Below are positions 9,690 through 10,606 of a DNA stretch of 64,000 nucleotides, piece by piece. Positions within the stretch are counted from its first letter, which is position 1; every line of letters starts with the position of its first letter. The translations under genes and the position numbers were made by a program. The notes beneath the pieces were generated by a model. The model searched no databases. It was not told the DNA's origin and worked only from the letters and a program-made list of their open reading frames with translations. Location: NCBI GenBank assembly GCA_963713925.1, contig OY970212.1, forward strand, positions 1,184,001-1,248,000, given 5' to 3'. The DNA comes from an uncultured bacterium. Its GTDB lineage: Bacteria; Babelota; Babeliae; Babelales; Vermiphilaceae.

Positions 9690-10355
9690 TTACACTAAGT
9701 ATGGCATGGGATTAATTGCTTTACCATAGTGGTAGATTTCAAAATGCAAATGTGACGGATCGCGTCCATGCTTTGAGCGCACCGCTCCGGTGTTGCCCAC
9801 TTTTCCAATTAATTGCCCTTGTTTTACTCTTTGGCCATCAACAACTAATATCTCATCTAAATGAGCATACCGTGTTTTATATTTATGTGTATGGTTAATA
9901 ACAATTGTCTTACCAAAACCTTTACCAAATCCGGCTTCAATGATTACTCCATCATGTGCCGCATACACCGGCGTTCCTTTTATTGCCGCCATATCGATGC
10001 CATGGTGAAAGCCCCAGACACCATTCGGCTTTTTGCGCGGTCCAAAAAGTGAGCTCAACCAAAATTCAGAAACTTTGATGGGCCAACTGAATTGCATATC
10101 TTGCTTTTCATGCTTGGCTCTCCGTTGAATCGGTTTTTTGTAAATGTGACGCTGACGCGCAGGCGAACTCTTTTTTTTAGAAACTGTTGTACTACGTTGT
10201 GCTAATAGCAGCTGTTCATTATAATCTTGCAACTCATTCCAGTTGATCTGTTGCACGATGAGGCCTTCATCTTGTTTCTTAATAAATTCAAGCGCAGATT
10301 GTTTTAAATAGTTAATGTCTCGGTTCACAATTCGTAAACCTTCTTCAATATTCAA
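9690..10355 (-). CDS. M23 metallopeptidase, catalytic part; probably fused to the upstream ORF by -1 recoding
   Basis: HHGIDMA, RYAHL, HLHFEI motifs; no signal or TM segment of its own. Confidence 0.9.
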   Translation of the reverse strand: MNIEEGLRIVNRDINYLKQSALEFIKKQDEGLIVQQINWNELQDYNEQLLLAQRSTTVSKKKSSPARQRHIYKKPIQRRAKHEKQDMQFSWPIKVSEFWLSSLFGPRKKPNGVWGFHHGIDMAAIKGTPVYAAHDGVIIEAGFGKGFGKTIVINHTHKYKTRYAHLDEILVVDGQRVKQGQLIGKVGNTGAVRSKHGRDPSHLHFEIYHYGKAINPMPYLV

Positions 10356-10591
10356 TTCTTTTTTTTTTCGAGGCCATCCTCGGACGTTTCCAGCTCTTCT
10401 TCTTTTTGATTACTGTATTCATCAACAATTTTTTTGGCTACCGCCGTATACATGCGATATTCATCTTGCAATTCAACCGCTCGACGCGCCTGCTCTTTGA
10501 AAAATCGATATTCAAAAAAAAGAGCCGCACTTAAGATGAACATCAAAAGCCACATCAAAATAGTTACAAAATAAATGACTCGCTTAGTAAT
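10352..10591 (-). CDS. TM-anchor/coiled-coil N-terminal part of the M23 peptidase; probable ATT start
   Basis: SD AGGGAG 6 nt before an in-frame ATT; TM helix; ends GAA AAA AAA AAG AAT TGA. Confidence 0.65.
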   Translation of the reverse strand: MTKRVIYFVTILMWLLMFILSAALFFEYRFFKEQARRAVELQDEYRMYTAVAKKIVDEYSNQKEEELETSEDGLEKKKN

Positions 10592-10606
10592 GGCTGTCTC
10601 CCTGCA

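Follow-up and report, generated by a model that had tools for sequence, protein, structure and literature searches.

How can a cell-wall hydrolase be made from a locus in which the membrane anchor and the catalytic domain are encoded in different reading frames that meet at a run of ten adenines? This arrangement is found on the minus strand of a 64,000-nucleotide (nt) stretch from an uncultured bacterium of the Vermiphilaceae (Babelota; Babelales; GenBank assembly GCA_963713925.1, contig OY970212.1, positions 1,184,001 to 1,248,000), which we refer to as the window and whose numbering is used below unless a contig is named. The source genome (handle G000) is a single 1.32-Mb contig with 41% GC. 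Our analysis indicates that the two open reading frames (ORFs) are one gene for an M23 endopeptidase, that the adenine run is a conserved element which lies in frame in most relatives that carry it, and that the split seen in the window is probably a one-base under-count of this run. Together with an unusual ATT start codon, the tract is predicted to throttle the amount of enzyme.

Two reading frames, one M23 endopeptidase gene

All parts of the gene lie on the minus strand. The upstream open frame starts past the TAG stop of the preceding gene (10609-10607) and has 84 codons, or 79 counted from the ATT discussed below; it encodes a transmembrane (TM) helix and a coiled coil. Its translation includes ..ITKRVIYFVTILMWLLMFILSAALFFEYRFF.., a coiled-coil-like stretch and then ..LEKKKN*. 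The basic residues TKR precede a predicted signal-anchor helix (VIYFVTILMWLLMFILSAALFF, 10514-10579), which aligns with the TM segment of continuous relatives, and an EYRFF motif and the coiled-coil-like segment, with the zero-frame end ...LEKKKN, occupy 10355-10513. The frame closes with the letters ...GGCCTC GAA AAA AAA AAG AAT TGA, in which the A10 tract as assembled (10359-10368) is followed by a G at 10358 and, two codons past the tract, by the TGA stop (10352-10354). The remaining 221 codons lie in the -1 frame (9690-10355) and comprise a VNRDxxYLK linker, a basic linker and the Peptidase_M23 domain (9708-10010, ORF residues 116-216). One extra A in the tract would give a product of about 300 residues with the junction ..EKKKELNIEEG... 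The letters that the original prediction described, namely A10, a GAGGA, a small stem, AGGGAG, ATT and two ORFs in a -1 relation, are all present in the window.

The M23 half matches Pfam PF01551 with 112.2 bits (gathering cut-off 28.7; E 1.4e-32), and its HxxxD (~9993-10007) and HxH (~9744-9752) motifs are intact. These are the zinc-binding and catalytic motifs, and they mark an active M23 enzyme as opposed to a degenerate LytM activator. Residues H117, D121, H202 and H204 are invariant in a 20-sequence alignment of the family, and the two motifs align with those of ShyA, which is the closest relative of solved structure (E 2.1e-18). The top NCBIfam models are MepM (NF008652, 83.6 bits against a cut-off of 341) and ShyA (NF053825, 81.5 against 700); neither equivalog cut-off is reached, and the match is confined to the M23 domain. 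With equivalog scores this far below the cut-offs, we describe the product as an M23 endopeptidase and do not assign it to MepM.

An M23 homologue is present in 40 of 41 related genomes, mostly as an open frame of 290-340 residues, and the family members come from related loci of the Dependentiae (TM6) / Babeliales. The 20-sequence alignment gives a common layout of TM helix, EYRFF, coiled coil, [EQ]KK[KN], VNRxxxYLK, basic linker and M23 domain. Because the relatives are continuous and share the TM, coiled-coil and M23 layout of the window, the comparison argues that the two ORFs are one gene, as had been proposed when the TM/coiled-coil ORF was first joined to the M23 ORF, and its predicted product is an M23 endopeptidase with a membrane anchor. 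A search for homologues of the 79-residue N-terminal fragment at near lengths returned only the window's own 67-residue call; this search needs shared five-residue words and so speaks neither for nor against a separate short protein.

The only other M23-domain gene of the genome also lies in the window, at 44486-44782 on the minus strand (G000:C1:1228486-1228782). It is 31% identical over the domain and sits within a 412-residue open frame, and most relatives have similar paralogues of ~400-430 residues. A role as an activator of the EnvC or NlpD kind is possible.

A poly-A tract conserved at one site of the family

The A10 at 10359-10368 is one of only two A/T runs of at least 10 in the genome, which has none longer, and it is the only one within coding sequence; the other (G000:C1:1166434-1166443) is intergenic, ~15 nt upstream of a 900-codon ORF. 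Runs of A10-A12 occupied the same linker site in 16 of the first 35 related loci, 12 of them in frame and 4 split exactly there (A10 in G000, G013 and G023; A11 in G022). Two more scans added 160 loci, many of which carry A10-A13 ~230-265 nt into the ORF. Overall, about one orthologue in three has the tract at this position; it is carried by 40 of the 70 loci that could be placed, and in all 40 loci in which both landmarks could be placed it lies 26-55 codons past the EY motif. Its length differs by lineage, from A10 to A13, and the base that follows it varies among relatives (G, C or T), with most tracts in frame. One tract-bearing relative is the Vermiphilus pyriformis lineage (L149), whose A11 is in frame.

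The purity of the tract stands out against the codon usage around it. In G000 ORFs of at least 150 residues AAA makes up 75% of lysine codons, yet a KKK is written entirely in AAA in only 9 of 144 cases, and [EQK]KK[KN] is written as an A10 run in 0 of 43. In the tract zone of the family genes 33 KKK are written purely in AAA and 7 are interrupted, whereas in the basic linker of the same genes the counts are 4 and 23. Related genomes mostly hold a handful of A10 windows (2 in G013, 3 in G003, 4 in G025 and 5 in G021), with AT-rich outliers at 103 (G018), 72 (G022) and 109 (G031). Stops in the other frames follow the tract closely. As the sequences are related, the contrasts here are descriptive and not probabilities: an out-of-frame stop occurs within three codons past the tract in 58 of 96 alternative frames, compared with 22% of 8376 control windows from the same genes, and both alternative frames are closed within eight codons in 75% of 48 loci, compared with 18% of controls. 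These 48 loci include 8 that are not in frame, of which L056 and L169, with runs close to the start codon, are probably non-homologous. The TGA at 10352-10354 is among the out-of-frame stops that trail the tract across the family.

Because a pure run of A is kept where the genomes otherwise avoid long A runs, we consider the tract a special, conserved slippery element that appears to be maintained at the nucleotide level. The original prediction had singled out the A run as slippery, and its fixed site, its retention despite genome-wide avoidance and the stops behind it bear this out.

Translation probably starts at a conserved ATT

Between the in-frame stop at 10609-10607 and a TTG at 10558 the upstream frame contains no ATG, GTG or TTG. 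A protein started at the TTG would have only 14 hydrophobic residues (14-15 codons) ahead of the EY motif and would lack a basic N-terminus, while the family has a median of 29 codons before this motif. An ATT at 10589-10591 lies 26 codons before it and 6 nt past a Shine-Dalgarno (SD)-like AGGGAG (10598-10603), and is the probable start codon of the whole gene. We surveyed the starts of 70 distinct classifiable orthologues (59 other distinct loci were unplaceable): 38 have an ATG, 17 only a GTG or TTG, one has no candidate and one is open to the contig edge, while the other 13 lack any canonical start and have an ATT preceded by an SD-like motif. Ten of these 13 ATTs are exactly 29 codons before the EY motif, as ATT AAG TAY, and in the orthologues a GGAG-type motif precedes the ATT at the same spacing. 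The same ATT with an SD also occurs in 5 of the GTG/TTG loci, where the canonical start is poorly placed, and in 6 ATG loci. The ATT start that the original prediction had proposed is therefore well supported by the orthologues as a conserved one.

Translation would start at the ATT behind AGGGAG, and initiation would be weak. AUU starts of the infC type initiate weakly and are sensitive to initiation factor 3 (IF3). The available part of PMC9723500 describes IF3 as discriminating against non-canonical starts. The infC gene of the source genome itself appears to start at GTG and is uninformative as an ATT control. We find no link between ATT use and the presence of the tract: ATG loci with and without it number 18 and 20, and non-ATG loci 11 and 20. 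The database calls P0003, P0009, P0015 and P0016 start within the TM helix, past it or at the VNR motif, as would be expected of gene callers that meet an ATT start or an out-of-frame tract. The N-terminus of this family is therefore under-represented in public protein sets.

Predicted attenuation by slippage at the tract

We propose that selection keeps the tract at the nucleotide level and that runs of A10-A13 would make RNA polymerase slip, with a sizeable share of transcripts gaining or losing bases. Such transcripts would be out of frame and would terminate at the stops directly behind the tract. The outcome would be less full-length hydrolase, together with a TM-coiled-coil fragment of ~80-100 residues that ends just past the lysines. 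Ribosome sliding on the AAA runs may add to polymerase slippage. The ATT start and the tract would then be two dose limiters of a potentially lytic enzyme. A hairpin directly upstream of a slippery run promotes polymerase slippage in one insertion sequence (IS) element, and in the family a predicted stem ends within 2 nt of the tract at 18 of 40 loci compared with 524 of 2897 control windows; as the loci are related, a stem abutting the tract is at best a weak hint of a slippage promoter. If the A10 of the window is real, the same slippage would act in reverse, as in Citrobacter rodentium tssM1, and restore the frame.

A more sweeping version holds that Dependentiae dose their main membrane-anchored peptidoglycan endopeptidase through an ATT start and a dnaX-like slippage tract with ambush stops, which would also give a TM-coiled-coil isoform, and that in this genome the A10 is real and active enzyme comes only from slipped transcripts. 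We regard this full version as speculative and rather doubtful. Should the tract work as predicted, it would be a new and phylogenetically wide case of programmed transcriptional slippage in bacteria, placed in a cell-wall hydrolase, an enzyme whose dose needs tight control, and combined with a conserved ATT start. To our knowledge few such cases are known in bacteria, namely Thermus dnaX, tssM and IS elements. Both features, the ATT start and the poly-A tract followed by ambush stops, are conserved in this endopeptidase gene across Babeliales, and they appear undescribed: we found no description of the tract or of the ATT start in the limited library searched. The signature itself, a pure-A tract in a run-avoiding genome with immediate out-of-frame stops, can be searched for elsewhere.

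The split is probably a homopolymer under-count

The original prediction itself offered a homopolymer error as the alternative to recoding, and we now consider it the likeliest cause of the split: the run is probably a conserved in-frame A11 that was read as A10. This preference, held with moderate confidence, arises because the split follows a Nanopore-only assembly series and because the nearest relatives are continuous. Among de-duplicated loci that could be placed by EY motif and tract alike (84 loci could not, including L008, L018, G022 and G023), the records named 'MFD...bin' comprise four split loci (L117, which is L002/G013, L147, L177 and L192), each short of one A, one in-frame locus with A10, and L188 (which is G004), with breaks at several places. 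Other named records comprise 26 in frame, one split (L055, on a 1150-nt contig) and one broken elsewhere (L173), and the remaining loci comprise five in frame and one split, G000 itself. By eye, two MFD loci (L159 and L179, both A10) are in frame, as are 40 non-MFD loci with A10-A13, a count that is not de-duplicated; an in-frame tract of at least 11 was not found in any MFD locus. The MFD metagenome-assembled genomes were built from Nanopore reads only, with one round of Medaka polishing, according to the available text of PMC12313526. PMC9262707, as excerpted, states that homopolymers are resolved in the R10.4 consensus 'up to a length of <11 bp' and that those of at least 10 'will probably still be problematic'. 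The pattern of splits fits an under-count by one at true lengths of at least 11.

Pairs of close relatives point in the same direction. L177 and L192 have A11 and are split, while their SPAdes relative L180 has A12 and is in frame. L117 (A10, split) resembles L157, a SPAdes contig in which an A11 is in frame (GAT GAA AAA AAA AAA GAA TCT), and both give the same ..EKKKES.. reading. P0003, a single polypeptide of 282 residues from a Logan contig, is 67% and 73% identical to the two window halves (the 67% covers residues 2-61 of P0003 against the window's N-terminal stretch) and reads ..ESQKKKELIEQNE.. across the site, also given as ..SQKKKELIEQNE... P0010, a continuous protein of 306 residues, matches the two halves of L002 (G013), the split sister, at 78% and 86% identity, and P0011 reads ..SEKKKESDELKESFVVVNRD... 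It had been suggested to check whether relatives keep both the split and the A run, and the outcome is mixed: the run is kept, but the orthologues are continuous and the split is absent from the nearest of them.

Several observations weigh against an attenuator with a miscounted tract. G000 and its sister G013 share the A10G state (Shimodaira-Hasegawa-like approximate likelihood-ratio test (SH-aLRT) 96 in a quick tree that left out L030); shared ancestry could explain this, although the closer continuous relatives argue against it. No contig across 10359-10368 was obtained from seven public DNA runs, the best of which contained 0.40 of the sampled words and none of which is recorded as RNA. 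Homopolymer runs show no general excess at junction-like ORF pairs (52 of 5038 compared with 36 of 4000 random positions), in a test that mostly picks up ordinary gene junctions, and most of the genome's 45 A/T runs of nine sit inside long ORFs; the lack of general breakage is expected if only runs longer than 10 are miscalled and is also compatible with a true A10. Splits further occur outside the MFD series, in L055 (A10) and in two multi-contig genomes, G023, whose A10 is short of one A, and G022, whose A11 is either one A too long or two too short, so that some out-of-frame alleles may be real. The tract is missing from about two thirds of the orthologues and is therefore not essential to the protein, and the slippage, the truncated product and the initiation at ATT are all inferred from sequence.

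Some other irregular loci and runs were seen. In L188 (also L030 and G004) an A10 precedes the open frame by 312 nt and the M23 domain contains a TGA, which is more damage than one miscount. L173, a SPAdes contig with a low coverage of 4.1, is in frame across its A12 tract and loses the frame further downstream. All ten G/C runs of at least 8 in the genome lie outside long ORFs or at their edges and none splits a gene; they include window positions 25333 (C8) and 46559 (G8), a G10 at G000:C1:288619 and a G9 at 933497. On the plus strand, A9 runs at 23116-23124 and 55891-55899 lie near ORF ends or starts, and at 55891 two ORFs of 146 and 152 codons overlap in different frames.

It is conceivable, though in our judgement improbable, that the A10 is real, that the 79-residue TM-coiled-coil protein is the main product, and that full-length enzyme comes only from transcripts to which RNA polymerase has added one A. 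The tract is long enough, since runs of nine A or T slip efficiently in bacteria (available text of PMC5009743), and in C. rodentium tssM1 such use is made of an A11 run that stands ahead of a stop (PMC4256274, in part); both halves of the window gene are intact and conserved, and the lack of general homopolymer breakage and the out-of-frame versions in L055, G022 and G023 fit as well. Against this, the splits are concentrated in the Nanopore-only series, where all are short of exactly one A, and 26 of the 27 other named judgeable loci are in frame, L173 aside. An old shared split with both halves kept intact was dropped as an explanation, since the closer relatives P0003 and P0010 are continuous; as the split is not a shared old state, the intactness of the halves says nothing on recoding. 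Replication slippage in the tract is a further way to reach the same letters, with the assembly having caught the OFF variant of a contingency locus. Tract lengths from A10 to A13 among lineages and a few out-of-frame assemblies would fit such phase variation, but known contingency loci have ON and OFF alleles that are both common, and 26 in-frame loci against one split in named records outside the Nanopore-only series make it very unlikely here. Least probable of all is a recently inactivated pseudogene without rescue. A one-base loss in the longest coding homopolymer would be the likeliest spontaneous mutation at this place, but the gene is present in 40 of 41 related genomes, the genome has just one other, distant M23 paralogue, and neither half has a further defect, with the catalytic motifs intact.

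The original prediction had favored a programmed -1 ribosomal frameshift of the dnaX kind, with an upstream GAGGA and a hairpin as stimulators of shifting at A_AAA_AAG, and this fared poorly. As given, the sequence does hold the heptamer in the zero frame (10364-10358), a GAGGA 12 nt ahead of it (10381-10377) and a 5-bp cgagg/cctcg stem (10382-10369), and A_AAA_AAG is highly shift-prone in E. coli dnaX (PMC5009743, in the part available). However, an SD-like motif lies 6-18 nt ahead of the heptamer in only 2 of 40 tract loci compared with 101 of 1680 control windows (6%). The upstream hairpin has a minimum free energy of -6.9 kcal/mol and a z-score of -0.18, with 77 of 200 shuffles folding as well, and the downstream fold has a z-score of -1.44, with 21 of 200 shuffles as good; the cgagg/cctcg hairpin is thus not above chance as an element, and the stimulators are not conserved. 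In relatives C, T or G comes after the tract, which is in frame, so that no shift is needed; G022 would require the opposite shift, and the two-frame arrangement is not kept, with most orthologues, P0003 and P0010 continuous. A programmed ribosomal frameshift with dedicated stimulators is unlikely on these comparisons, and the dnaX-like form of it at this heptamer strikes us as highly improbable.

The longest coding homopolymer of a genome is where long-read-only assemblies fail, and comparing a family by type of assembly can reveal such a miscount even when no reads are at hand. If the run is under-counted, as we think probable, annotation of the locus as two genes or as a pseudogene would likely be wrong.

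Genomic neighborhood

The gene order at 10607-13004 on the minus strand and onward is batD (PF13584), a gene with a C-terminal SH3_3-like domain, the M23 gene and lepB. The SH3_3-like gene (10607-11389, minus strand) is a marginal match to Pfam PF08239, with 26.9 bits where the cut-off is 27. Its ORF overlaps that of batD by ~110 nt as listed, and it probably starts further downstream than this listing has it. The gene stops 15 nt ahead of the ATT, which makes translational coupling with the M23 gene possible, and the end of an SH3-like gene (...GW...LI*) lies directly upstream of the M23 gene in several relatives, so that the order seems conserved. The signal peptidase I gene lepB (8630-9664, minus strand; Pfam PF10502, E 9.8e-35) follows 25 nt past the M23 stop.

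Comparison with known systems

The protein resembles the membrane-anchored or periplasmic M23 DD-endopeptidases MepM and ShyA in the HxxxD and HxH motifs of its M23 domain. MepM has an N-terminal membrane anchor, and one is likewise predicted for the window protein. It differs from both in lacking a LysM or OapA domain and in having its own coiled coil and VNRxxxYLK linker instead. At the start codon the likeness is to infC with its AUU: in the window gene an ATT behind a good SD is the only usable start and is kept among orthologues. The gene is a different one, and no autoregulatory logic of the infC kind is known here.

Among systems that change frame at A runs, E. coli dnaX shares with the window, as given, the zero-frame heptamer and an SD-like GAGGA 12 nt upstream. 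Its frameshift makes the short product, whereas in the window it would have to make the long one, and the SD and 3' hairpin of E. coli dnaX have window counterparts that are neither conserved nor above chance. Where a coding region contains 11-12 A's in a row, less protein is made and the frame is lost (PMC4552401 and PMC4363877, each in part), and such lysine poly(A) tracks offer an alternative or additional way for the window tract to act, with the conserved cases mainly eukaryotic; ribosome sliding and polymerase slippage are not separable from the sequence data of the window family. In Buchnera and Blochmannia, likewise intracellular bacteria with small genomes, genes broken at long A runs are still expressed via slippage (available parts of PMC5009743 and PMC3017870). 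There many genes are hit and the tracts are seen as decay, whereas here a single tract is found at one site across an order whose genomes otherwise avoid such runs.

In C. rodentium tssM1 and Yersinia pseudotuberculosis tssM an A11 run before a stop is rescued by transcriptional frameshifting, which yields a membrane-anchored protein in two lengths (PMC4256274, as excerpted). The window as assembled likewise has a poly-A run, a stop soon after it and an essential C-terminal domain in the other frame. The out-of-frame state of tssM is verified in DNA and both forms are needed, whereas that of the window probably arose by miscounting, with the majority of relatives in frame. The layout of the family matches that of transcriptional slippage in Thermus thermophilus dnaX, in which, according to the accessible text of PMC5009743, the long product is encoded in one ORF with a 9-nt A/T run inside it and stops in both non-zero frames, so that slipped transcripts give a defined short product. 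The window family likewise has a homopolymer of at least 9 inside the coding region, kept in orthologues, with stops in both other frames, and slippage at it is predicted. The Thermus gene encodes a clamp-loader subunit, whereas the window family encodes a cell-wall hydrolase, with a longer tract (A10-A13) that is carried by about a third of the orthologues.

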